DNA from: Candidatus Saccharimonadales bacterium
Lineage (GTDB): Bacteria; Patescibacteriota; Saccharimonadia; UBA4664; SCTI01
NCBI GenBank assembly: GCA_035479795.1
Contig: DATIII010000004.1
Location: 15,668 to 79,667 of the forward strand
Direction: 5' to 3'
Length of the DNA: 64,000 bases
The translations under genes were made by a program, and so were the position numbers. Positions 8,727 through 49,410 of the stretch are shown one piece after another. The notes beneath the pieces were generated by a model. That model worked only from the letters and a program-made list of their open reading frames with translations, had not been told where the DNA came from and searched no databases. Position 1 is the first letter of the stretch. Every line of letters begins with the position of its first letter.

Positions 8727-9054
8727 GAGTAATTACCAGGTTTTACAGGTGTAAGGGCTAAAAATAAAAGGACTTCCGGCGCCCTCACGTCCTGGAGGGG
8801 TAACCGGAAGTATTCCTTACCACAAAAAGAATTGTAAGAAACTCCGCCTTGGCTGTAAACCCTTTTTTTGAATTCCATGACTACATATTGTCATGTGACT
8901 ATAAAAATCTCTAGTGGAAAAGTTAGGCCAAATGGGGAGAAAGGGTCGGCTAATCTGTTGGCCGGATTTAGAGATGACAATATATGCGGCTATGATTTGT
9001 CTGCAGCTCGGTATACTATGCCTTCACCTGAGGAAATCTACCAAGGGAGCACCT

Positions 9055-9846
9055 ATGAGCACCTATGTCGCACAACCATACGTGGGCATTACCGGTATCT
9101 CGACTCCCTGGGAGATCGAGGCCATTACTAGCAAATGGTTTGAGGTCTTTGATTGGACGGAGACTGATCGCCGGTTTATGAATGGCATCTTGGTGTCCTC
9201 CAAGTCGCTAAGAGGGGAAGCGCCTAGTGATCCGCAGCAGTATCCCGACCTCGGGAGAGCTCGCCACCTGATGGTTGATGACCCGCGAGTCATGAACACG
9301 GTTCATTTCAACATCAGCGGGCTGACTGAGCGCCCCTCGCGGGTCCTAAAGCTGGGGAGTTACCTCAGCCGGGTGGTCGAGCGGCTGCCGGCAACCGAAG
9401 CCATCCAAATCAACCTGGCGTGGCCCAGTGTGGATCTATTGAAAGGCTTCAGGGAGGATCATTCACAGCTGATAATCCTCCAAATCGGAGCAGCGGCTTA
9501 CGAGGCGCTGGGGCACGACCCAGGGCGACTGGTGGCGGTTCTGGAGCACTACTGCGGAGTGGCTGACTACGTCTTGATTGACCCCAGCGGAGGCACGGGC
9601 CAGCCGTTTAACCTCAGCTTGGCGCTGCGGACCCTCGATGCACTGGCGGGTTCAGATCTGCCGATGTTGTGGGGGATCGCCGGCGGCCTGGGGCCAAACA
9701 GCCTGGGCCGGCTTAAGAAGCTGGTCGAGCTGTATCCCAATCTGAGCTGGGACGCCCAGGGCCGATTGCGCGACGGCGAGGGTCACCTGGGCTGGGCGGA
9801 GACCTTTGCCTACCTGAAGGGGAGCTTGGCCTTGGCTCGGCGCTAG
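9055..9846 (+). CDS. Phosphoribosylanthranilate isomerase-like (TrpF/PRAI family) TIM-barrel protein
   Basis: AAGGGAG Shine-Dalgarno 7 nt upstream of ATG 9055. YVGITGIST N-terminus and YVLIDPSGGTGQPFNLSL...LWGIAGGLGPNSL resemble the TrpF termini. No other trp genes seen. Confidence 0.45.
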   Translation: MSTYVAQPYVGITGISTPWEIEAITSKWFEVFDWTETDRRFMNGILVSSKSLRGEAPSDPQQYPDLGRARHLMVDDPRVMNTVHFNISGLTERPSRVLKLGSYLSRVVERLPATEAIQINLAWPSVDLLKGFREDHSQLIILQIGAAAYEALGHDPGRLVAVLEHYCGVADYVLIDPSGGTGQPFNLSLALRTLDALAGSDLPMLWGIAGGLGPNSLGRLKKLVELYPNLSWDAQGRLRDGEGHLGWAETFAYLKGSLALARR

Positions 9847-9884
9847 AGGTGGAGACAGGGGCTGGATCGCAAGATCCGGCCCCT

Positions 9885-11204
9885 TTAGGCACCGCCCACA
9901 ATATCGAAGTACTTGGTGGAGTAGAAGGGTACTTTATCCTTCATGGGGTTCTTCGACATGGCAACATCGGCTGAGGCCACGATCAGTTCGCCATAACGGT
10001 CGTAGAGCTGGTCGATGGCGTCCTGAACCTGGGATTTCTTGGTGTATTCATCTACGAATAGGGCTGGCTGCTCCTGGCGAATCGGCGCTAGACCGTAGGC
10101 AGTCAGGTCGAAGGCTGTGACAACTTCGCCCGAAGGACTGTGTTCGAACAGCCATTTAGCACGATTATAAAGCTCGTCGGGTCGGTGAGCCGGAGCCGGC
10201 CACTTATGGCGGTCGCGCCAGCGCTGTGAGTAGAAGCTCTCGTCTGGAGACGCGGCCCTGTAACGCAGCCCCAGGGCCAGGCCGCGGGCCTCAAGACCGG
10301 CCATCCTCAGCTTACGGCTGACTTTAAATGAAGCCTTGTGCAGCAGGGCTAGAATTTGCTCAGGATCAGCTGTGCGGTGCTCTAATACATACTGCCGGCC
10401 AGCTGTCCTGGTGGCGTCCTGCCAGGTCTCGGTTTCGTAGCCACGTAGTTTGAAGTACCAGTGGTGACCAAGCACACTGCCAAATACCTGGCGGAATAGC
10501 ACCCAGTAGGGAGCCCTAAGGAAGTCCACCGGGGTGCGGATGCCAGCCATATTCAATCGCACTTGGTTGCGCCGCTTAATGTAGGGCAGATCAGTCAGCC
10601 GCAGGCTGCCGTAGACCTCCCGGAGATTGTCGGCCGAGATCACATCCAGACCGTTTGGCTTATTCAGGCCCGCGGCGACCTTGGCCAGCCAGAGGTTTTG
10701 GCCAATGCCGACATTGACCGTCATATAATCGCCAACTTCCTCGCGCACTCGTTGCTTGATTTCGCGGCCGATGTCTTCGAGAGGTCGACCTTTTAGCAGC
10801 TGGCGCATACCTCGAAAATCAATCACGCCTTCATCGATCGACTTCATAAAGGCAGTGGGCGAGTAATCCTGGAAAATGCCTTTAAGCTTGCGGTGGACGT
10901 GAATGTATTTAGCTGGGTCGCTTTCCACCATCACAAAGCTGGGGTCGATCAGCCGAGCGTCACGCTGGCGGGTGCCAATCACAATGCCTTGGCGCTTGGC
11001 CTCGTAGGAACTGGTGATGCAGATTGAATAGTCGGCCAGGCGCTCGGTGCCAGCCACCTTCACTCGGTTACTAACGCCCACGGGCCGGCCACGTAAGTGC
11101 GGTCGCCACTGCTGCTCGGTCATGGCAAAGGCACCATTGAGGTCGATGTGCATGACCTCCGGCGGCTCGGGGCTGATAGGCACATCGATGCCGTTAAGAG
11201 CCAT
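9885..11204 (-). CDS. Y-family DNA polymerase (DinB/UmuC-like)
   Basis: VMHIDLNGAFAMTE...RPVGVS N-terminal motif and palm/fingers-like region IDEGVIDFRG. Confidence 0.7.
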   Translation of the reverse strand: MALNGIDVPISPEPPEVMHIDLNGAFAMTEQQWRPHLRGRPVGVSNRVKVAGTERLADYSICITSSYEAKRQGIVIGTRQRDARLIDPSFVMVESDPAKYIHVHRKLKGIFQDYSPTAFMKSIDEGVIDFRGMRQLLKGRPLEDIGREIKQRVREEVGDYMTVNVGIGQNLWLAKVAAGLNKPNGLDVISADNLREVYGSLRLTDLPYIKRRNQVRLNMAGIRTPVDFLRAPYWVLFRQVFGSVLGHHWYFKLRGYETETWQDATRTAGRQYVLEHRTADPEQILALLHKASFKVSRKLRMAGLEARGLALGLRYRAASPDESFYSQRWRDRHKWPAPAHRPDELYNRAKWLFEHSPSGEVVTAFDLTAYGLAPIRQEQPALFVDEYTKKSQVQDAIDQLYDRYGELIVASADVAMSKNPMKDKVPFYSTKYFDIVGGA

Positions 11205-11457
11205 AGAACACCTCCACTAAAGTCCATTCAAATGTTTCTGGGTCGAACTCTAGGGTGAAGTCGTTCGAGCCCGATGAAAAGCCACAGACCAGTACGCGTT
11301 TTTGACCGCGTTTGGCGAAGTGGTGCCCACCCATGACATCTATTTTGTAGCGTCTACCTTTCCATTGCATCAGGTAAGGGCGGACATAGACGGACTGCTT
11401 TGACTGTGGGCTAAAGGTGGCCAGCACGCCGACTTTATCGTGTAAGTTTTCGAACAC
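11194..11457 (-). CDS. Small protein overlapping the Y-family polymerase start by 11 nt (possible accessory subunit)
   Basis: 87-aa ORF translationally coupled to the polymerase; no confident family assignment. Confidence 0.4.
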   Translation of the reverse strand: MFENLHDKVGVLATFSPQSKQSVYVRPYLMQWKGRRYKIDVMGGHHFAKRGQKRVLVCGFSSGSNDFTLEFDPETFEWTLVEVFYGS

Positions 11458-11475
11458 GCTGGCCCCCAGAGCTAT

Positions 11476-11916
11476 TTAGACGCGGGCGGCGACTAGTTCG
11501 TCGCTGGCGTTGATTTGGGCTTCTTGCCGTCGCTCGTCTAAGCGTTGTTTGAAGTATTTAATCAAGCCCCAGGATTGCTTGATTACGGCCAGGGCTTCTT
11601 CCTGCAGCTCCCGTGTATCGCCTAGGCCGGCTTCGGTGTAGGCAGCCAACTGCTTTTGGAGGCTTTCGGCGCTGGTGCGAGCTAGGTGTAATGATCCCAG
11701 CTTGCGGCTGTAGCTTAGTGCCTTATGAGACTCGGAAATAAAGTGGGCAATGGCCGCGGATTCGCGGCGTAGATCATTACCTAATGGATATTGTTGCTCT
11801 TCGGGTAGGCTAGATACTAGCCCGTGGACGGCATCTTCCAGCTTTCGGGCAGTTTGGTAAATGCGTAACCCCTCAATGCTCTTCTTTACGTTTTGCTGTG
11901 TTGGTTCGTGTGACAT
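11476..11916 (-). CDS. Four-helix-bundle protein (23S rRNA intervening-sequence protein family)
   Basis: LRIYQTARKLEDAVHGLVSSLPEEQQYPLGNDLRRESAAIAHFISES matches the four-helix-bundle family signature. Confidence 0.55.
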   Translation of the reverse strand: MSHEPTQQNVKKSIEGLRIYQTARKLEDAVHGLVSSLPEEQQYPLGNDLRRESAAIAHFISESHKALSYSRKLGSLHLARTSAESLQKQLAAYTEAGLGDTRELQEEALAVIKQSWGLIKYFKQRLDERRQEAQINASDELVAARV

Positions 11917-12020
11917 GACTCCTCCTGTGCACTTAGAAAATATCCCCTCTAACAGATAAGATACCGAACAAAAACCGAACTGTCAAGTCAAAAAGTAAGA
12001 CCCCGATGGAGCCTTATTCT

Positions 12021-12221
12021 TTAGCGCATAGGGTTAGTGGTTTGCGCTGGTGTTTTGATCGGCGACTGCAAGTCTTGGCTAAGAGCCGAAATTTGATCCT
12101 CGCTTAAGGCCGTGGCCGCTTCGTAACGGTCTTGGTCTGAATCGGAGGATGGATTTTTGCTGTCGGGGCCAATCTCCTCGAAAAAAAGCGGGTAATCTTC
12201 GAGCCTATCAGACTTTCTCAT
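12021..12221 (-). CDS. Small hypothetical protein
   Basis: 66-aa ORF, acidic/Ser-rich; weak evidence. Confidence 0.25.
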   Translation of the reverse strand: MRKSDRLEDYPLFFEEIGPDSKNPSSDSDQDRYEAATALSEDQISALSQDLQSPIKTPAQTTNPMR

Positions 12222-12476
12222 GGGCCTCCCCTGTTACGACATTTTCCGCCACAGTTGTGGCATACGAAGACCAAGATACCGGGGGAGTGGGGGTGTGTCA
12301 AACGGCCAAACCGCCAAAGAATTCGCTTTTAAAACAGTTACGATTTGTAAAATTGCTACTCATTAAATAATGGTCTTGCCGAGCTGTGGAAATGTAGGGT
12401 AAACTTTGGCAACGAATCGGCGTTAAGCCGTTTTTGTACCAGTGGCTTACTAAGAGCCGCATAACAAACAAACGAG

Positions 12477-13208
12477 GTGGTTATGGACTTGGTCCGGATG
12501 AAGTTTGGTGAGCCTGACCACGTCGGGCGGAAGCATCAGTTCTACAAGGTGCCGGGACGGCCAGAGATGGTCGTTCAGCGCCAGTCGGATCTGCCGGATT
12601 CGGCCGAATGGTTCGAAGTGGCCTGCTCCATCTATGAGCTGTGGCAGCAGACGGGTGCGCCTGTTCGGTTCATGCATCGCTATCAGGGCGACGATCTGGA
12701 CTTGGCCTTCGTGGGTCGCGAGATCGAGCGCGTCCGGCCCAAGATTGCCGTGAGCCACAGGCAGGTTCGCACCGAGCGTCGCACCGAGGCAGTGTTGCTC
12801 GACGAGACAGGGGAACTCATGCTCGTTCCGGACATCATCAATGGCCGGGTTGTACAGCTCGACCGGACTCATCGCGCGGAGGTGGGCTGGATGGAGTGGG
12901 TTGATTTCAAGCTCACCGATAGGCCGATCGAACCCGCGGACGACGTTAGGTCTCAGTTGGCGGAGATGGGGCAAATCGCCCATGAAGCCTTCGACGCGCT
13001 CGCTGGTCAGCTCGAGAAGTCCGGCATACAGCTGGGCCGAATGGTGCTGGAGTTTGGGCTGGACGTCGAAACCGGTGACTTGCTGATCGCCACCTCAATG
13101 GACATCGATTCGTTCGTCGGCTACAGCCACGACGGCGAGCTTCACTTGAGGTCACCAGAGTGGCCAAATGCCTTGGTGGCGGCAACAGCGGCGGTTCAAG
13201 CCGCGTAA
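12477..13208 (+). CDS. SAICAR-synthetase-like (PurC family) protein, divergent
   Basis: GIQLGRMVLEFGLDVETGDLLIATSMDIDSFV resembles the PurC L-x-D-x-K-x-EFG...DEISPD region. GC-rich; no other pur genes in the window. Confidence 0.4.
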   Translation: MVMDLVRMKFGEPDHVGRKHQFYKVPGRPEMVVQRQSDLPDSAEWFEVACSIYELWQQTGAPVRFMHRYQGDDLDLAFVGREIERVRPKIAVSHRQVRTERRTEAVLLDETGELMLVPDIINGRVVQLDRTHRAEVGWMEWVDFKLTDRPIEPADDVRSQLAEMGQIAHEAFDALAGQLEKSGIQLGRMVLEFGLDVETGDLLIATSMDIDSFVGYSHDGELHLRSPEWPNALVAATAAVQAA

Positions 13209-13311
13209 CGTCGCAGAGGGTGGTGGTCTGGAGTAATCCGGGCCACCATGAAGCAATTATTAATATGAAGAACCCCGGCAAAGAGGTCCTTCGTCGGGGT
13301 TGTTGGCTGAT

Positions 13312-13896
13312 CTAGGTGGTGCTATCACGGCGTTTGGGGAAGGCTGTGACGACTGGCGGGCCAGGTGGCATCCGCAGCCTGGGATGGAACCTCAGGGTTT
13401 CCAAAACACCGAACTCCAGGGCCATCCGGGGTGTGACTCGTCCTCGGGGAAAGTAGATGGTGTCGTCGGCCTTCAGGTCCGCGCGCACCAGGGCCGGCTT
13501 CCAGCGGCCGGACTCGCGATCCTTGGCCTGGAAAACGCCGTCCTTGATCCGGGCAGCGAGTGCCCAGCGTGGGTTGACCTTGCTGGAATTGGCCTGGCAT
13601 GCCTTACAGGCGGGGAAGACATTGCTGGGCTTGGGGACGGTTTTGGCCGGGTAGTTGTATATGTTCCGCGGCTCATAGAAAAGCTTGAGATCGCCGATCG
13701 GTCGGTAGTTACCACAGGTGTAGCAGCGGCCCTGGCCGAGCACGCGGAGCACCTCATGGACCTCTTCCAGTCTGCGACGGTTTTCATCCCGGATCTCTTC
13801 CTCGAGATCGGCATATGCCACGGCTGCCAATTCATACGCGTTGGTGGCTTCCTTCAGCAGCAGCTCGATCTCTCGTGGGATTTGCAGATCGGTCAT
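13312..13896 (-). CDS. Hypothetical protein with CxxC...CxxC zinc-binding pair
   Basis: CYTCGN and CKAC pairs. Chosen over the antisense ORF 13300..13935, which has Gly/Ala/Leu-rich composition typical of a GC-rich wrong frame. Start could be 13941. Confidence 0.4.
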   Translation of the reverse strand: MTDLQIPREIELLLKEATNAYELAAVAYADLEEEIRDENRRRLEEVHEVLRVLGQGRCYTCGNYRPIGDLKLFYEPRNIYNYPAKTVPKPSNVFPACKACQANSSKVNPRWALAARIKDGVFQAKDRESGRWKPALVRADLKADDTIYFPRGRVTPRMALEFGVLETLRFHPRLRMPPGPPVVTAFPKRRDSTT

Positions 13897-13947
13897 GATC
13901 ACCTCAGTGGAGCTTTCATCAGAACACGGCCATGATACCATTAGCTC

Positions 13948-14109
13948 ATGAATAAGTCAGCCATCTGGGTTGGAGCTGGAGTTGGTGGAGTGGTCGGTGG
14001 CTATATCCCTAGCTTGTGGCATGCTGATTTTCTTTCGCCCGCCAGTATTCTGGGAAGCACTGTGGGTGGCTTGGCTGGAATATGGGTGATTTACAAGCTC
14101 TACAAATAA
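13948..14109 (+). CDS. Small glycine-zipper membrane protein (GlsB/YeaQ/YmgE-like)
   Basis: MNKSAIWVGAGVGGVVGGYIPSLWHADFLSPASILGSTVGGLAGIWVIYKLYK, 53 aa; not in the ORF track because it is under 60 aa. Confidence 0.4.
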   Translation: MNKSAIWVGAGVGGVVGGYIPSLWHADFLSPASILGSTVGGLAGIWVIYKLYK

Positions 14110-14179
14110 GCGCTTATGCTTGCAGTAATCATTTAGAAACTCAATAATCCTCCCATCGTCTACCAAGAAGGACGTTGAA

Positions 14180-14455
14180 ATGGAAATTCCAACTAGCGGC
14201 TGGCCAAAGAAGGCCTACGACGCCATGTTGGCCAAAGACAAGGATGAGTTCGACTATGCCATGACTCGTTACTGCATTTACCGTGGTGAGGCAGAGGCGA
14301 ACCAACTGGTATTCGATCTTTACGATCTGATGCCGGACGACATCAAGCTCTGGTGGCTCGAGGAAGACGCGTCCCTGCCGCCGGTGGAGGAGACGGGCGA
14401 GCGTAACTTCCAGCGCGCGATCATCGAAATGAACGCCGAGAGGAGGCGTAACTGA
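14180..14455 (+). CDS. Hypothetical protein (91 aa), first of three overlapping genes
   Basis: Stop overlaps the next start (TGATG). Confidence 0.45.
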   Translation: MEIPTSGWPKKAYDAMLAKDKDEFDYAMTRYCIYRGEAEANQLVFDLYDLMPDDIKLWWLEEDASLPPVEETGERNFQRAIIEMNAERRRN

Positions 14456-14916
14456 TGGGAAATCTGGGGCAGTTTCCGCAGCTTCAAGATCAAGCGCGGG
14501 CAGAGCAGCCCAATCGGGACCTGGTGAAGGCGCGGCGGGCGTTGTTCGACCGTTTCGACCAGTTCAACCACCGCAGCCCAGTACTGGCCGTAGAGCATCT
14601 AACTGAAGTGGCCGTGGCGCTGGAGGCCACCTTGGAGCTGCTGCCGCATCACCCGGGATTTGCCAGGTACGTCGCGGAGGCCGATCTATATCGGGGCTTC
14701 GATATGCCGCGCGGCTGGGTCAGCGACGACTTGCACTTCTTGGCCATCGTCGAAGCCGGCCATTACCTGTGGTGTATGCACGAAAGTCGGCTTCGTGAGT
14801 TCTTCTTGCACGAGCTGCGTGAGTTGGTGACGATGCCCCAGACCTTCGATGGGGACTTCAAGGACATCGCCGGGGCCATCATGGCCTGGACGGCCGACCC
14901 CGACGAAGACAAATGA
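14455..14916 (+). CDS. Hypothetical protein (153 aa)
   Basis: ATGA overlap with the downstream gene; no recognisable motif. Confidence 0.45.
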   Translation: MGNLGQFPQLQDQARAEQPNRDLVKARRALFDRFDQFNHRSPVLAVEHLTEVAVALEATLELLPHHPGFARYVAEADLYRGFDMPRGWVSDDLHFLAIVEAGHYLWCMHESRLREFFLHELRELVTMPQTFDGDFKDIAGAIMAWTADPDEDK

Positions 14917-15350
14917 CCGACCGATGGGTGGCATATTCGGCCGGTCAGGTGGTGACCTTGATGGTCGAAGTGCCGCTAGAGCAGCCTCGCCGCCAATTGT
15001 GGGAGGTGTTGAGCAGTATCGACCTTTCGGCCATAACGATGGCCATGAGAATCACTGGCGGGGAGTACGAGCAAACTGTGGCTTACTGGATGCTCATCTG
15101 TATCGTCGAGCCCCGGACCAGGCACGGCACCTTTTACGGCCTTCTAATGGACGAAATCGACCACTTGGAAAGTGACCTGCGCCAGGCTGGCCTGGTAATC
15201 CGTCGTTACTCGAAGTTCGGCAACGAGCTGCTCGACGCTGAAGGTCTGGCCGATTACGCTCGGCGCATAGTCTGCTCCGGCGAGCCGGCTGAAAACCAAG
15301 GACAGCAAGAGCTGGAAGAGCGCGCCGACGATGGCGGCCGCGGGGACTAA
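14913..15350 (+). CDS. Hypothetical protein (145 aa)
   Basis: Third gene of the overlapping set; acidic C-terminus. Confidence 0.45.
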   Translation: MTDRWVAYSAGQVVTLMVEVPLEQPRRQLWEVLSSIDLSAITMAMRITGGEYEQTVAYWMLICIVEPRTRHGTFYGLLMDEIDHLESDLRQAGLVIRRYSKFGNELLDAEGLADYARRIVCSGEPAENQGQQELEERADDGGRGD

Positions 15351-15372
15351 CCCTGCGGCCGCCGTTTTGCTT

Positions 15373-16552: not shown

Positions 16553-16637
16553 GCTCCGGGATGCGGGATACGGGATGCAGAATACAGAAATAACTATGAG
16601 CTTCTCCGAATCCTGAATCCTGAATCCTGAATCCTGT
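16553..16637. repeat. Inverted arrays of tandem heptamers (CGGGATR x3-4 ... GAATCCT x4) immediately upstream of the regulator start
   Basis: ccgggatgcgggatacgggatgcagaatacag ... ccgaatcctgaatcctgaatcctgaatcctg. Confidence 0.8.
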
Positions 16638-17941: not shown

Positions 17942-18529
17942 TCAGCTGTCGATGCCGTCCGTCTCCGGTGGCTCCGTCTTGAGCTTGGTGTCGGACTTGA
18001 GCTTGATGGCAGCCGGCTTGATCTGGAACTGCTCCTCCGGATCGTTGACGGTGATGCCCTTGATCTTGCGGGCGTCGCGCAGAGCATCATCATCGTCTTT
18101 GAGTCTGTCCTTGACGATGATCCGCTTGGGTTCGGTGAACCGTTCGCTCCAGCCCCTCCGAGCAATGTCAGCTAGAGCCTTGTCTTCGTCATCGATACTG
18201 ACGGAGAGGGTGGTGGGCTTGAAGACCAGTTCGCCGTTAGGCAGTCGGATCGTCTTGGTCTCGCCGCGACCCTTCGCCAGCTCATCGCGGTAGTCATCGG
18301 CGAAGAGCTCCAGATCGGCTTCAAGTGCCGGAATGGCTTCGATGTCAGCCTGGATGTCAGCCTGGGCAGCCGCTACCAGGGTTGCCACTGTGGCATCGAG
18401 CTCGGCTTGCCGTCTGGCCACAGCGGCGTAAATACGCCGCAGCTCGCCGAGGTTGTTGTTGGCTTGGGTGATCTCCCCTGGAGGCACATTTGGATGTGCC
18501 GGGAGAGCGGGTGCTGCGTTAGCTCCCAT
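17942..18529 (-). CDS. Phage Mu Gam-like protein (host-nuclease inhibitor family)
   Basis: N-terminal coiled coil, then KTIRLPNGELVFKPTTLSVSIDDEDKALADIARRGWSERFTEPKRIIVKDRL...GITVNDPEEQFQIKP, matching the Gam-like family. GC-rich islet. Confidence 0.55.
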   Translation of the reverse strand: MGANAAPALPAHPNVPPGEITQANNNLGELRRIYAAVARRQAELDATVATLVAAAQADIQADIEAIPALEADLELFADDYRDELAKGRGETKTIRLPNGELVFKPTTLSVSIDDEDKALADIARRGWSERFTEPKRIIVKDRLKDDDDALRDARKIKGITVNDPEEQFQIKPAAIKLKSDTKLKTEPPETDGIDS

Positions 18530-30023: not shown

Positions 30024-30058
30024 AAGTCCTGTCACCCCGACCAAGAATTATTACCAAT
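30024..30058 (+). repeat. Direct repeat of the tRNA-Pro(GGG) 3' end (att-like scar)
   Basis: AAGTCCTGTCACCCCGACCA is identical to 29879-29898. The next ~13 nt are also similar (GGTATTATTACAA vs AGAATTATTACCA). Abuts the stop of the dcd-like gene. Confidence 0.7.
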
Positions 30059-30581
30059 CTCCGGACTGAAAGTTTTTGTGCGAAAGCGATGCCATTGGGC
30101 CGCGGGCGTTCTGGTATTTTCCGGTATACAACTGAGGCTGGCCGATCGGTACCCAGAAGGTCATCTGCCCAATCGACATCCCCGGATAAATCTTAACCGG
30201 CTGGACTGCATGCATCTGGAGTGTCCATTGCCCAAAGGCGCCTTGATCAATTAAATCAGCTGTAATATTGATGAATAAACCGAGCCGGCCGATAGAGGAG
30301 CGGCCTTTCATGATTGGCACGTAGTTATTGCTGCCAATACGCTCCTCTATATGCCCGAGGTAGAGTCGGTTCGGCTCTAAGACCATGCCCTCCGGAGATA
30401 TTTTGATAGTCCGGGTTGCATTTGAGCGCTTAGCGTCCAGAACCGCTGGCTCGTACACCTTGATGGTTTGACCGATATGAAAGTTGTATGAGTTTGGGTT
30501 AATGTGCCGTGGGTCAAAGGGGGAAATTTGAATCCTTCCCGATTTAACCTCACTGGCTATTTCGGGCCCGGTTAGTATCAC
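30051..30581 (-). CDS. dCTP deaminase/dUTPase-superfamily protein, paralog 2 (catalytic Glu replaced by Gln)
   Basis: GRSSIGRLGL and ADLIDQGAFGQWTLQMHAV. Aligns to Dcd, but the position of the deamination Glu (E138 in E. coli Dcd) is Q. Confidence 0.65.
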   Translation of the reverse strand: MILTGPEIASEVKSGRIQISPFDPRHINPNSYNFHIGQTIKVYEPAVLDAKRSNATRTIKISPEGMVLEPNRLYLGHIEERIGSNNYVPIMKGRSSIGRLGLFINITADLIDQGAFGQWTLQMHAVQPVKIYPGMSIGQMTFWVPIGQPQLYTGKYQNARGPMASLSHKNFQSGDW

Positions 30582-31592: not shown

Positions 31593-31692
31593 CTTTCCCT
31601 TGAATGATGATAGTTCTTAAGCATAGTCATAACTAGTCGAAACAGTTTGACTCAAATGCTAATTGCAGTATCTTAGAAGTCTAGGAGTTTTT

Positions 31693-32355
31693 ATGCATCG
31701 TTTGCAGCAACACATTCTGCAGAGGCTGATTCTTAACCCCGAGCAGCGTTATGCCGACCTCAAGCCGGTGGAAGTGGAGGGGAATCTCTTCATGTACCAT
31801 CTGCGCTGTTTGATGAAGGATGGCTATGTTGAGAAGCGGGCGAATGGCCGTTACAGCTTAAGTGCCGCTGGTAAGCTCTATGTCGACCGTCTTAGTCTTA
31901 AATCTCTGACTCCCCGCATTCAGCCGCGGATTGTGACATTAATGGCGGTGGAGCAGGGCGGCAAGTGGTTGGTTTATCTGCGTAAACGCCAGCCACTCAT
32001 CAATCTAATCGGCTTTCCCTATGGCAAGATCCATTTAGGAGAGAGCATTAAGGCCGCGGCTGAGCGCGAGCTTAAAGAAAAGACCGGGTTAATCGCTGAC
32101 CTCACTCACGTTGGTGATGGATATGCTACAACATCCGAGGCCGGTGAGCCGGTTAGCCAAATAATGTTTCATATGTTTTATGGTAAGGATCCAAAGGGCG
32201 AGATTCTGGAGCACTCAGACATCGGCGAGCCCATGTGGGTCGATGAGTTGGCTATTGGTGGGCAGGGCTTTATGCCCAATGTCGCCGACCTACTGGCCTT
32301 GGTAAAAAATCGATCAGCCGAACGCTTCTTCGCGCAACTCGAACATCGAATTTAG
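31693..32355 (+). CDS. Winged-helix plus NUDIX hydrolase domain protein
   Basis: AGGAG Shine-Dalgarno 6 nt upstream. Nudix box GKIHLGESIKAAAERELKEKTGL. Divergent from the kinase-dcd operon. Confidence 0.65.
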   Translation: MHRLQQHILQRLILNPEQRYADLKPVEVEGNLFMYHLRCLMKDGYVEKRANGRYSLSAAGKLYVDRLSLKSLTPRIQPRIVTLMAVEQGGKWLVYLRKRQPLINLIGFPYGKIHLGESIKAAAERELKEKTGLIADLTHVGDGYATTSEAGEPVSQIMFHMFYGKDPKGEILEHSDIGEPMWVDELAIGGQGFMPNVADLLALVKNRSAERFFAQLEHRI

Positions 32356-46993: not shown

Positions 46994-48013
46994 ATGAAAC
47001 GACAAGCGCTCGTCTGGGCCATGTTGATAGTCACGACGATTGCTGCCATGGGTGTATTTATGGAGGTACACGCTCCAAAGTCGAGCCAAAAAGCAGCTGT
47101 CGAGAAAGCTGAGCCAAAGGAGTTGGATCGGTTAACCATTGAGTCTATTCGAAATCGGACTTATACGCCTAGTTCTCTCGATGTCGAGCAGAATTTGGGT
47201 AACCAAGGAGGCTATAGCAATCAAATAGTTTCTTATACCTCCGATGGCCTGAAGATCTATGCATTGAAAAGCACGCCGGCCGGAACCGCTCCGGCAGGTG
47301 GCTGGCCGGTGATAATCTTTGACCATGGCTACATTTATCCGCCGGATTACCGCACTAATGACGGCTCGTACCAACAGTTCATCGCCGCCTTTGCGTGCGC
47401 CGGCTATATAGTTATAAAGCCAGATTACCGCGGGCATGGTCAGAGCCAAGGAGTGCCGGAAGGTGGCCATTTTTCGCCGGTCTATGCCTACGATAACCTG
47501 AATTTAATTGCCAGTCTCAAGCAGCAGCCCGATGTTAATGCGGCGCGGATTGGCCAGTTCGGCCACAGCCTGGGCGGGCATGTAGCCCTGCGCACGATCG
47601 TGGCGTCTAAAGATGTAAAGGCGACAGTATTGGCGGCCGGAGTGGTCGGCTCGTTCAATGATTTCTTCTATAACTGGCCGCACAGCCCCATGCCTTATGA
47701 TCGGCCGCAGATTGTCCAAAGTCTCAAGGCTCAGTATGTTGCGAAGTACGGCGAGCCCAAGGCTAATCCAAATTTCTGGAACAGCGTCACCTCGCTGAAC
47801 TACGTCAATTACATTAGCGGTGCAGTGCAGGTGGATCACGACGCCGGTGATTCAACAGTCCCAGCCTTGTTCTCGCAGCATTTAGTGTCGGCGTTGCAGA
47901 AGGCTGGCAAGACAGTGGAATACAATGAGTATCCCGGTGACGATCATCAGTTTAGCGCTAACCGCCAGCGCATTCTGGCCGATGCCCTGACTTTTTATCG
48001 CAAGTATCTTTAG
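46994..48013 (+). CDS. Secreted or membrane-anchored alpha/beta hydrolase (S9/dienelactone-hydrolase-like)
   Basis: N-terminal hydrophobic anchor; GHSLGG nucleophile elbow; C-terminal D...H. Confidence 0.65.
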   Translation: MKRQALVWAMLIVTTIAAMGVFMEVHAPKSSQKAAVEKAEPKELDRLTIESIRNRTYTPSSLDVEQNLGNQGGYSNQIVSYTSDGLKIYALKSTPAGTAPAGGWPVIIFDHGYIYPPDYRTNDGSYQQFIAAFACAGYIVIKPDYRGHGQSQGVPEGGHFSPVYAYDNLNLIASLKQQPDVNAARIGQFGHSLGGHVALRTIVASKDVKATVLAAGVVGSFNDFFYNWPHSPMPYDRPQIVQSLKAQYVAKYGEPKANPNFWNSVTSLNYVNYISGAVQVDHDAGDSTVPALFSQHLVSALQKAGKTVEYNEYPGDDHQFSANRQRILADALTFYRKYL

Positions 48014-48092
48014 AACGGGCAAGGCCCGGCTTATGCCAGGCCTCTAACAATCCCTGCCCTTCCTGCCGGCCTACTTGCCGGCGTCTCCGTTG

Positions 48093-48725
48093 CTAGCTGG
48101 CCGAGATGCCGCCGCGCAGCAGGATGTCCTGCATGGGCGTGGTGACCGGCGTTCCCATGGACGCAAAGCCGTAGGTCCGGAACAGCCGGATGGCCTTGCG
48201 GCTGTGGCGCTCGGCGCTCTCGAAGTCGTGCTCCAGCGCGTCGGCGGCCGTCAGCAGGGCGTAGACCGGAGCCAGGTCCTGCTGCCGACGGTTCTTGATG
48301 AAGATCTCCTTGGCCCGCTCGAGGCGCTCGAGGATCTTGTCCGTCTGGATGCCCTTCTTCGTAATGGCCATCTTGGCCCAGGTGATGACGGCGTCGGCCC
48401 AGGCCACGATCTGCTCGGGGTCCCTCTCGAGCGTGGTCAGGTCCTTCTCCAGCAGCGAGGCCGTCTGCTCGTACGAGACGGGCAGCTGGCTGCGCAGCAG
48501 GGTGGCCTGGTAGGTGGCGGTGCCGCGATCGATCTCGCCGAAGTCTGAGAACTGGCTCAGCCCCTCGAAGATCGCCAGCGCCACCTCCGGCTGGGCGATG
48601 TCCGGCTGAACGAACTGGACCGCTCGGTCCATGACGGTCAGCAGCTGGTCGCTCTGTACCTGCGTGGAGGGCATGTGTCTCCTTTGGTGTGGTGTGCGGG
48701 ATTGCACGGTTTCGTATGTTAGCAA
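48093..48725 (-). CDS. Hypothetical protein in GC-rich islet
   Basis: 210-aa ORF with balanced composition. The overlapping ORF 48031..48732 in another frame is Arg/Pro/Gly-rich and judged spurious. Confidence 0.45.
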   Translation of the reverse strand: MLTYETVQSRTPHQRRHMPSTQVQSDQLLTVMDRAVQFVQPDIAQPEVALAIFEGLSQFSDFGEIDRGTATYQATLLRSQLPVSYEQTASLLEKDLTTLERDPEQIVAWADAVITWAKMAITKKGIQTDKILERLERAKEIFIKNRRQQDLAPVYALLTAADALEHDFESAERHSRKAIRLFRTYGFASMGTPVTTPMQDILLRGGISAS

Positions 48726-48864
48726 AGCGCACCGGGCGCTAGCGACCGCGTCCCTGACAAATATTTACGATTATTTTCGGCTAAATTCGTGGGAATGAAA
48801 AAGCTTTCCTGTTATAAGCGAACGCCCCACCAGCCGGGCCAGCGGTTTGTTCGCTTGGTGTTGG

Positions 48865-49410
48865 TCAGTGGGGCAGTTTGGCGATGAAGCCGGGCAGCCG
48901 CTCCAGCAGTTCTTCGAGCGAAACTACTACTATGCCTGGGCTGCGTCGAACGGCGGATGCGGGCATGAGGTTGTACGGCAAACCATCTTCGCCGCAGGTT
49001 CGCAGGTCGTTGCGGTAGCCGATGACGGGGACGTTATGAGCGGCAGCCCAAACGACTTCGCAGACCGTACCGTTGTCTGGTGGTTCTCCGTCCAGGATGG
49101 CAATCAACATCTGCGCGTGGTCGCGGATGGTGTCATAGTGGTGGTCGCCCAGATCTAGCCACATCTCTGGCTGGTCGGTCTCGTCCGCCTCCTCAATACG
49201 AGAGACATCGACGCTCCATGGGTCCAGAATATGTACATGAGGCTCCAGGGCGGGGAGTAGTACATGGTCGTACCAGTACTTGGTCCCCTCAGCGAATCCG
49301 TTGGGATTGGCAATGTAGCAAGCCGGCTTATCAAGTTCCATTTCTATCCTTGTATTGGGGCTACAGGAACGCCAATATAATGTCGCTTTAGCAGACCCGC
49401 AACAAGTCAA
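48865..49410 (-). CDS. Nucleoside 2-deoxyribosyltransferase-like protein
   Basis: ACYIANPNGF...PDNGTVCEVVWAAAHNVPVIGY matches the NDT family (catalytic Glu in a DxGTxxExG context). Start may be 49341 (MELDK...). Confidence 0.6.
   Translation of the reverse strand: MTCCGSAKATLYWRSCSPNTRIEMELDKPACYIANPNGFAEGTKYWYDHVLLPALEPHVHILDPWSVDVSRIEEADETDQPEMWLDLGDHHYDTIRDHAQMLIAILDGEPPDNGTVCEVVWAAAHNVPVIGYRNDLRTCGEDGLPYNLMPASAVRRSPGIVVVSLEELLERLPGFIAKLPH

Follow-up and report, generated by a model that had tools for sequence, protein, structure and literature searches.

We analysed a window of 64,000 nucleotides (nt) from a Candidatus Saccharimonadales bacterium (assembly GCA_035479795.1, contig DATIII010000004.1, positions 15,668 to 79,667 of the forward strand), and focused on a block of six genes at 12400-15360 of this window that is rich in guanine and cytosine (GC). 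Saccharimonadales (TM7/Patescibacteria) have small, reduced genomes and rely on host bacteria. A reading made from the letters alone, hereafter the sequence-only reading, had described in this block a divergent SAICAR-synthetase-like (PurC-like) protein, a convergent protein with Cys pairs, a 53-amino-acid (aa) glycine-zipper peptide missed by the list of open reading frames (ORFs), and three overlapping genes without recognisable domains; it had further suggested that the block was acquired horizontally. All six ORFs were found as described, and the locus consisted of the following features.

12222..12482, no strand: left-border intergenic region, divergent, between g66 (-) and the PurC-like gene (+)
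12483-13208, + strand: PurC-like gene, 241 aa, predicted SAICAR-synthetase fold
13312-13896, - strand: Zn194, 194 aa, two CxxC pairs, convergent to the PurC-like gene
13948-14109, + strand: gz53, 53 aa, predicted two-helix glycine-zipper membrane peptide
14180-14455, + strand: A91, 91 aa, first gene of the overlapping trio, acidic, predicted soluble
14455-14916, + strand: B153, 153 aa, 1-nt overlap with A91, acidic, predicted all-helical
14913-15350, + strand: C145, 145 aa, 4-nt overlap with B153, acidic
15330..15366, no strand: GC-rich hairpin at the right border, between the convergent C145 and CdaR391, from a terminator-like scan

At the left border, nucleotide similarity to the related contig L005 (77% over 9537-12419) ended at about 12419, some 60 nt ahead of the start of the PurC-like gene. 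A GAGGTG Shine-Dalgarno sequence was located 3 nt 5’ of the PurC-like ATG (12483). The upstream region of this gene had no Rfam match and an unremarkable RNA fold (z = -1.25), and a riboswitch or structured leader 5’ of the gene was rejected on these two grounds. The start of Zn194 at 13896 was backed by a GAGGTG-N3-ATG context and by a promoter-like site at 13960-13932 (-). At the right border, the hairpin contained 16 pairs, of which 12 were G-C, and is probably the bidirectional terminator of C145 and CdaR391; sequence beyond 15336 was conserved in three relatives (L086, L087, and L091). No paralogy was found among the block genes or between them and the rest of the window.

Such genes could in principle be an artefact, either as spurious ORFs in GC-rich non-coding DNA or through a chimeric contig of a metagenome-assembled genome (MAG). 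The lack of any homologue found for Zn194 and C145 would agree with this, as would the antisense frames that high GC keeps open, for instance a 211-aa ORF opposite Zn194. However, the block sequence had been independently assembled in two NCBI MAGs, CAZQMU010000002.1 (GCA_964594805.1) and one carrying the block proteins as HSX41366-71, all labelled ‘hypothetical’. It was also recovered in Logan contigs from two or three runs, and was therefore not an assembly artefact. The codon-position pattern, the Shine-Dalgarno sequences, the ATGA-type overlaps, and the synteny of both flanks further argued for real genes. For the PurC-like gene, gz53, A91, and B153, homologues in which the proportion of nonsynonymous differences (pN) was below that of synonymous differences (pS) refuted the artefact outright; for the block as a whole, we regard it as very improbable.

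The composition of the block was atypical and not uniform. GC content of 12400-15360 was 58.4%, compared to a window mean of 52.1%, and fell at the 99.8th percentile of 2961-bp windows (standard deviation (SD) 2.2%); the highest-GC 2961-bp window of the entire 64 kb began at 12491. Tetranucleotide usage deviated by 0.245 in the block against 0.177 +/- 0.016, making it the top-ranking 3-kb window at about 4 SD over the mean. The GC level of 60-63% that the sequence-only reading had given for the whole block was reached in some 400-bp windows, which peaked at 0.60-0.62, but local GC fell to 0.49-0.51 across 13800-14200, the position of gz53, which itself had a GC of 0.49, below the window average. 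GC at third codon positions (GC3) was 0.72-0.77 in the five larger block genes (0.74 for Zn194 on its minus frame, 0.72 for C145), with a window mean of 0.58 and an SD of 0.074. The order GC3 > GC1 > GC2 was found in all block genes, as in the other genes of the window. The block is GC-rich but compositionally heterogeneous. Two further GC-rich stretches were present in the window, 8921-11881 at 56.8% and 48001-49000 at 62.5%. A GC spike of 62.5-65% at 48000-48750 carried three long ORFs overlapping one another on both strands, none of the three with a Pfam match, and the longest had an Arg/Gly/Pro/Ala-rich translation that appears non-genuine.

Peak GC together with the most deviant tetranucleotide usage of the window is what would be expected of a single, recently acquired genomic island, in which all six genes arrived together from a donor of higher GC. 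We compared the locus among relatives. These were reached through homologues either of CdaR, the flanking regulator, or of the PurC-like protein, and 95 loci were fetched. Among GTDB species representatives, a query with the 23S_rRNA_IVP (IVP) anchor gave no match and a query with threonyl-tRNA synthetase (ThrRS) gave a best identity of only <=47%, spread over mixed phyla. The lineage is therefore without a close GTDB representative. Scans of Joint Genome Institute (JGI) metagenomes with the IVP and PurC-like profiles gave no match.

Across the order, the same backbone was kept on the left (L25, NrdR, x, a Y-family polymerase, in some cases an 87-aa gene, 23S_rRNA_IVP, and g66, followed by the variable slot) and on the right (CdaR391, CdaR372, a Mu-Gam-like gene, further genes, two tRNA-Val, and ThrRS). 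The polymerase, 87-aa gene, and IVP protein of L005 were 88-93% identical to those of the window. What lay in the slot differed between relatives, listed here with the identity of their CdaR391 where it was available.

L092 and L094 (CdaR391 about 70%): slot empty, with a spacer of 118-167 nt between g66 and CdaR391
L095 (CdaR391 70%): a gz53 homologue only, 68% identical
L089 (CdaR391 70%): a lipase-like 863-aa gene and gz56
L088 (CdaR391 72%): a lipase-like 848-aa gene
L090 (CdaR391 86%): gz53 adjoins CdaR; right flank only
L086/L087 (CdaR391 83%): gz53, A91 (74%), and B153 as a 24-aa C-terminal remnant, with C145 absent; right flank only
L091 (CdaR391 91%): a B153-like gene (38%) adjoins CdaR, no C145; right flank only
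L005 and L004: a PurC-like gene (47-49%) directly after g66, then an overlapping gene of 85-96 aa for a protein with two transmembrane segments (two-TM), no Zn194; left flank only

The block was not conserved with identical neighbours in all relatives. Its absence from those at about 70% CdaR identity agreed with a single island. The parts of the block otherwise varied independently of one another. Judged from gene content, the backbone is constant while the content of the slot varies, and the region is accessory.

The peptide gz53, in the middle of the block, argued against a joint arrival. The sequence-only reading was right that the gene is real: it was uncalled by the gene caller of CAZQMU010000002.1, is held by NCBI in the sister MAG as HSX41368.1, and was conserved in relatives. 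Homologues stood next to CdaR in five Saccharimonadales contigs at 50-77% identity (L086, L087, and L090 77% each, L095 68%, L089 50%), and a sixth homologue, in L093, was 41% identical. Seventeen columns were invariant among them, including a GxxxGxxxG stretch, a P-x-LW...SP loop, a GGxxG motif, and a YK-x-Y tail. The ratio of nonsynonymous to synonymous rates (dN/dS) was about 0.06-0.10, with dS saturated in every comparison that we made. The best glycine-zipper Pfam match of gz53 (PF05433) scored 15.9 bits (E = 0.012) against a gathering threshold of 24.2, and one of the six homologues matched. From conservation, position, and low GC, gz53 is a native backbone gene and not foreign DNA; of all parts of the block it is the best conserved and the least foreign, which argues against a single island. 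The gz53 family appears to be specific to Saccharimonadales. In L095, the gz53 homologue (9195-9353, -) was overlooked by the caller of that assembly, and a 92-aa antisense ORF was called instead.

The PurC-like protein was assigned by several kinds of search. Its score against Pfam SAICAR_synt (PF01259) was 13.9 bits (E = 0.046), under the gathering cut-off of 20 bits, and its homologues P0002, P0003, and P0124 had no SAICAR_synt match. A word-indexed search of 5.8 billion clusters returned three PurC-like members including the window protein. HMMER, run exhaustively with the family profile against 1.84 billion representatives, returned the window protein, P0003, P0124 (E = 2.8e-20), and P0125 (E = 2e-5), the last being a true PurC-PurE fusion (Pfam SAICAR_synt 1.4e-33 plus AIRC). 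With P0002 added, the PurC-like family has four known members among about 15 billion proteins. By hhalign, the PurC-like protein aligned to P0125 with a probability of 93.3% (E = 2.6e-7); the 204 aligned columns reached from the glycine loop near the N-terminus as far as the C-terminal motif. PDB profile matches of the PurC-like protein at E < 0.3 were PurC or PAICS without exception. The AlphaFold2 (AF2) model was weak, with a predicted local distance difference test score (pLDDT) of 50.8 and a predicted template-modelling score of 0.53. A Foldseek search of the PDB with this model placed SAICAR synthetases in all of the top 38 positions (38/38), with a best E of 8.8e-7 and TM-scores of only 0.35-0.44. 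Taken together, hhalign, the PDB profile, and Foldseek bore out the divergent SAICAR-synthetase-like assignment, and we take the protein to be a genuine remote PurC homologue with a predicted SAICAR-synthase fold over its full length.

The fold, the full-length homology, and a conserved EFG-motif Glu would allow a working SAICAR synthetase or a purine-salvage enzyme kept for nucleotide metabolism. We mapped the active site by projecting the PDB-profile and hhalign alignments on the residue lists of PMC9376930 and PMC3261824. The residues checked were Glu179, Asp175, Arg199, Arg94, and Ser100 of E. coli and Lys191, Glu193, Asp207, and Arg215 of human PAICS. Asp175, Arg199, and Ser100 are among the E. 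coli PurC contacts reported as fully conserved (PMC3261824), and Lys191, Asp207, and Arg215 are among the active-site residues of human PAICS (PMC9376930). The N-terminal loop glycine (phosphate loop) was retained in a G-x-K-x arrangement. The EFG-motif Glu (PAICS E193) was kept as the invariant E190, and was the sole retained one of the catalytic and substrate residues checked. PAICS Lys191, the lysine for the Asp substrate, was replaced by Val, and Asp207 of the A-D motif by an invariant Thr204, which yielded an A-T-S-x-D motif. Arg215 (E. coli Arg199) was replaced by Val and Asp189 (E. coli Asp175) by Arg, both at positions that are variable across the family. The TAxN loop and the R-x5-G-S segment (Ser100) were deleted. 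No pur gene was found among the window ORFs scanned by Pfam or through precomputed gene calls, which covered most larger ORFs and agreed with the earlier statement that no purine genes lie nearby, and de novo nucleotide pathways are reported incomplete in published Saccharibacteria genomes (PMC7786006). With most of the active site lost, no pur gene among the scanned ORFs, and these pathways reported incomplete, we conclude that the protein has the PurC fold without being a SAICAR synthetase. The sub-cut-off Pfam score, the failure of P0002 and P0003 to match Pfam, and an amino acid-changing rate (dN) 5-13 times that of neighbouring genes argued in the same direction, and a working synthetase is extremely improbable. 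We concluded from the aligned residues that the PurC-like protein is predicted to be unable to make SAICAR; it probably still binds a nucleotide, with other chemistry or none, which we say with low confidence. Elsewhere in the window, three salvage or sanitation genes were seen: a nucleoside 2-deoxyribosyltransferase (48865-49410, -), a dCTP deaminase-like gene (30051-30581, -), and a NUDIX gene (31663-32355, +). Their presence fits a salvage-dependent lifestyle, in contrast to the lone PurC-like gene.

Comparison of the same genome pairs showed how fast this gene has changed. Between the window and L005, dN of the PurC-like gene was 0.56, compared to 0.04-0.12 for four neighbouring genes, though pN (0.40) remained below pS (0.65). 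The PurC-like gene and B153 both had a dN 5-13 times that of flanking genes in identical genome pairs, again with pN below pS. Divergence was spread along the entire PurC-like protein, indels included. A diversity-generating retroelement, brought to mind by the Avd-like 23S_rRNA_IVP neighbour and the fast PurC-like divergence, was rejected, as there was no reverse transcriptase in the scanned ORFs and no template/variable repeat, with no repeat pair of at least 50 nt involving the block. In all three lineages (window, L004, and L005), GC of the PurC-like gene was 5-8 points above that of its neighbours. Since the GC excess is common to the three, it is an old property of the gene and not a mark of recent arrival; since the gene stands at the same site in L004 and L005 at 47-49% identity with an equal excess, its arrival predates their divergence. 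This counts against a single recent island. In L093, the distant member P0124 was found on a different backbone with a gz53 homologue 60 nt downstream, which suggests a PurC-like/gz pairing into which Zn194 was inserted in the window lineage. A two-TM protein of 85-96 aa overlapped the stop of the PurC-like gene in L004 (6680-6970, +) and L005 (3772-4029, +). The two copies were 58% identical to each other and had an acidic Gly/Asp-rich tail; the protein is missing from the window, where Zn194 on the opposite strand takes its place.

Zn194 is the convergent Cys-pair protein of the sequence-only reading. About 35 residues separate its two CxxC pairs, and it is basic (isoelectric point (pI) 9.4). 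No homologue was found in the fetched loci, Pfam, NCBIfam, PHROG, the PDB, phages, plasmids, or IMG/VR. Over the CxxC...CxxC region, PADLOC gave sub-threshold matches, the better one with PDC-M01B (E = 2.4e-4) and another with PtuB, the HNH nuclease of Septu (E = 0.022), and no Pfam HNH match was obtained even at E <= 10. Zn194 as an HNH-like zinc finger is a tentative lead suggested by these matches. The gene is probably an insertion between the PurC-like gene and gz53, whose counterparts in L093 are only 60 nt apart.

The trio downstream, called a tightly overlapping set without recognisable domains, was so in our searches: A91, B153, and C145 gave nothing below E = 0.001 in Pfam (which returned none), NCBIfam, PHROG, or PADLOC, the best weak match being a PHROG of no assigned function to A91 (E = 0.0069). 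None of the three had a PDB match, and B153 and C145 also had no phage or plasmid match. All are acidic (pI 4.5, 5.0, and 4.6, respectively). A91 was 74% identical to the L086/L087 gene that likewise follows gz53, with dN/dS of about 0.1, and was absent in L090, where gz53 adjoins CdaR. B153 had a 38% identical homologue in L091 next to a CdaR that was 91% identical (dN 0.62 versus 0.057), and persisted in L086/L087 only as the 24-aa C-terminal remnant. A single-sequence AF2 model of B153 was all-helical with a pLDDT of 48.9, and a fold search with it returned no match below E of about 1, which is uninformative at that confidence. For C145, neither the libraries nor the fetched loci gave a homologue; the gene was missing from L086/L087 and L091, whose similarity to the window restarts at 15336, and is probably the newest addition to the slot. 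The presence pattern is consistent with turnover of one gene at a time beside the 16-bp hairpin shared with CdaR391.

With low confidence, the acidic trio and Zn194 resemble accessory genes of conflict or host interaction. A more specific form of this idea is a conflict module for anti-phage defence, anti-defence, or toxin/immunity, in which Zn194 would be an HNH-type ββα-metal nuclease or DNA binder, the acidic proteins inhibitors or immunity factors, and the PurC-fold protein an effector that modifies nucleotides. The weak PADLOC matches, the basic charge of Zn194 set against its acidic neighbours, the very fast change of the PurC-like gene and B153, the coming and going of genes, and the translational coupling all fit such a module. 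However, every PADLOC match was sub-threshold, Pfam HNH was silent, and the catalytic His of HNH nucleases is apparently substituted in Zn194, as read by eye from its sequence. The gene order was unlike any known defence architecture, and Zn194 was missing in every relative with other block genes, hence no obligatory partner of them. We consider a conflict module unlikely, with a small chance of being right.

These observations bear on horizontal acquisition, which the sequence-only reading had proposed for the block. The atypical composition and patchy distribution spoke for it; the single unit did not hold, since gz53 is native, the PurC-like gene is old at its site, and close relatives have or lack each of A91, B153, and C145 separately. 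Whereas a mobile island would be co-present or co-absent as a whole unit, the components here vary independently among relatives. Across 8.9-18.5 kb, no ORF had an integrase, recombinase, or transposase domain. The nearest tRNAs (Val, 18656 and 18846) were 3.3 kb off, past conserved genes, and only chance-level repeats of 14-27 nt were seen, none of them bracketing the block. IMG/VR scans with the PurC-like protein, Zn194, B153, and C145 gave no match, tblastn searches of phage and plasmid sequences with Zn194, B153, and C145 returned nothing under E = 0.5, and a viral structure library gave no significant match to the PurC-like model. A phage origin was therefore unsupported, and no donor was found for any block gene. 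A single recently acquired island is improbable, and horizontal acquisition of individual pieces, partly supported by composition and patchy distribution, is plausible.

Together, our results indicated that the block is probably a composite slot for accessory genes in a Saccharimonadales chromosome, a hotspot where genes turn over, and that its parts have different histories. From the anatomy, composition, and presence pattern we infer a stepwise assembly, and any biochemical role of the parts is likewise conditional. The slot would be bounded by the divergent promoter region at g66 and by the terminator hairpin shared with CdaR391. The PurC-like gene, confined to a very small clade, would derive from a SAICAR-synthetase-fold protein and could now encode a nucleotide-binding protein, a ligase of a new substrate, or a pseudoenzyme, perhaps acting with small membrane proteins encoded downstream (gz53/gz54, or the two-TM protein of 85-96 aa in relatives). 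Zn194, a basic zinc-ribbon protein, would have been inserted between it and the native gz53, while the translationally coupled A91, B153, and C145 would have been gained or lost singly at the terminator-proximal end. Our preferred guess for their roles is accessory functions in the envelope, host interaction, or conflict.

Several points weigh against this composite-slot reading. The functions given to all genes are predictions, and both structure models (PurC-like and B153) are of low confidence, at pLDDT 49-51. The strong deviation in composition could mean a foreign origin of several pieces. The break in similarity to L005 near 12419 fits cassette replacement through recombination as well as fast evolution in situ. 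That few or no homologues were found for Zn194, A91, B153, and C145 applies to smaller libraries and to the 95 loci that were fetched. Relatives were mostly represented by short contigs with one flank; the slot was fully spanned in five, none of them from the closest clade.

In reduced, host-dependent genomes, sites of gene turnover are promising places to look for functions in host interaction or conflict, and this slot displays turnover at the resolution of single genes. It also holds a rare case in which a core fold of purine biosynthesis persists, its active site altered, where the complete pathway is reported lacking. A bolder proposal is that the PurC-fold protein (invariant EFG...ATSxD) founds a new family of enzymes or pseudoenzymes, derived from SAICAR synthetase, that works with small glycine-zipper or two-TM membrane peptides in an order reported to be unable to make purines de novo; with the acidic proteins of fast turnover, it would make up a hitherto unrecognised host-interaction or conflict locus of these epibionts. 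We regard this as speculative and unlikely to be correct; if true, possible activities of the protein would be ligation or phosphorylation of a new substrate at the envelope, or the sensing of nucleotides from the host. On its own, the locus amounts to a few hypothetical proteins; its value is as a starting point for finding enzyme families and for mapping hotspots of plasticity in Patescibacteria.

Other variable features were seen in the surrounding backbone. Two alternative polymerase cassettes occurred among relatives at one site (window 9885-11457), beside the Avd-like 23S_rRNA_IVP protein. The window-type polymerase with its overlapping 87-aa gene was found in L005 (88%/93%), L094 (60%/41%), and L088 (66%), and the other type, which had only about 30% identity and lacked the 87-aa gene, in L004, L089, L092, and L095. 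The pattern resembles xenologous replacement at one fixed site. A second variable slot was located in the gap between NrdR and the polymerase (window 8727-9884), where an ORF at 8914/9055-9846 (+) would encode an orphan of 263-310 aa with a GC3 of 0.70; the corresponding place held a 132-aa gene in L004, a dCMP deaminase in L089, and homologues just 31-35% identical in L092 and L094. The window also has, at 17942-18529 (-), an end-protection gene of Mu Gam type (PHROG 491, E = 1e-17), which, as judged by its synteny in L086, L089, and L092, is part of the conserved Saccharimonadales backbone and not of a prophage. The intergenic region that separates CdaR391 from CdaR372 contained two short arrays of heptamer repeats, four copies of GAATCCT at 16608-16635 and three GGGATRC-like copies at about 16560-16582. 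The arrays at 16560-16635 may be regulator binding sites or slippage-prone repeats.

We finally compared the parts of the locus with known systems. Like SAICAR synthetase (PurC, EC 6.3.2.6, PF01259; the N-terminal domain of PAICS), the PurC-like protein is predicted to have the same fold with a full-length alignment, and it shares the G-x-K-x glycine loop and the EFG motif with its Glu, followed by an ‘LL[IV]A’ strand. It differs in its sub-threshold Pfam score, the replaced catalytic residues, the lack of a purine context, a family of four members, and its fast evolution. With the glycine-zipper proteins of two transmembrane segments (PF05433 Rick_17kDa_Anti, PF13441 YMGG-like, and PF13488), gz53 shares the predicted two-helix hairpin and the GxxxGxxxG and GGxxG motifs, but it lies below all curated thresholds and stands alone at 53 aa, without a lipoprotein signal or an OmpA domain. 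With HNH/ββα-metal nucleases such as PtuB and PDC-M01B, Zn194 shares the Cys pairs and an ‘N-x4-AC-x2-C-x2-N-x2-K’-like C-terminal half; however, the position of the catalytic His is apparently Tyr or Glu as read by eye, no PtuA-type ATPase partner accompanies it, and the protein includes further regions, helical towards the N-terminus and beta-rich towards the C-terminus. Lastly, the slot as a whole resembles regions of genomic plasticity without mobility genes in its conserved flanks, variable content, atypical composition, enrichment in orphans, and additions at a convergent terminator. It is set apart from them by a size of just 3 kb, a reduced epibiont genome, the embedded gz53, which is native and conserved, and several genes that appear to be diverging in place instead of being just gained or lost.

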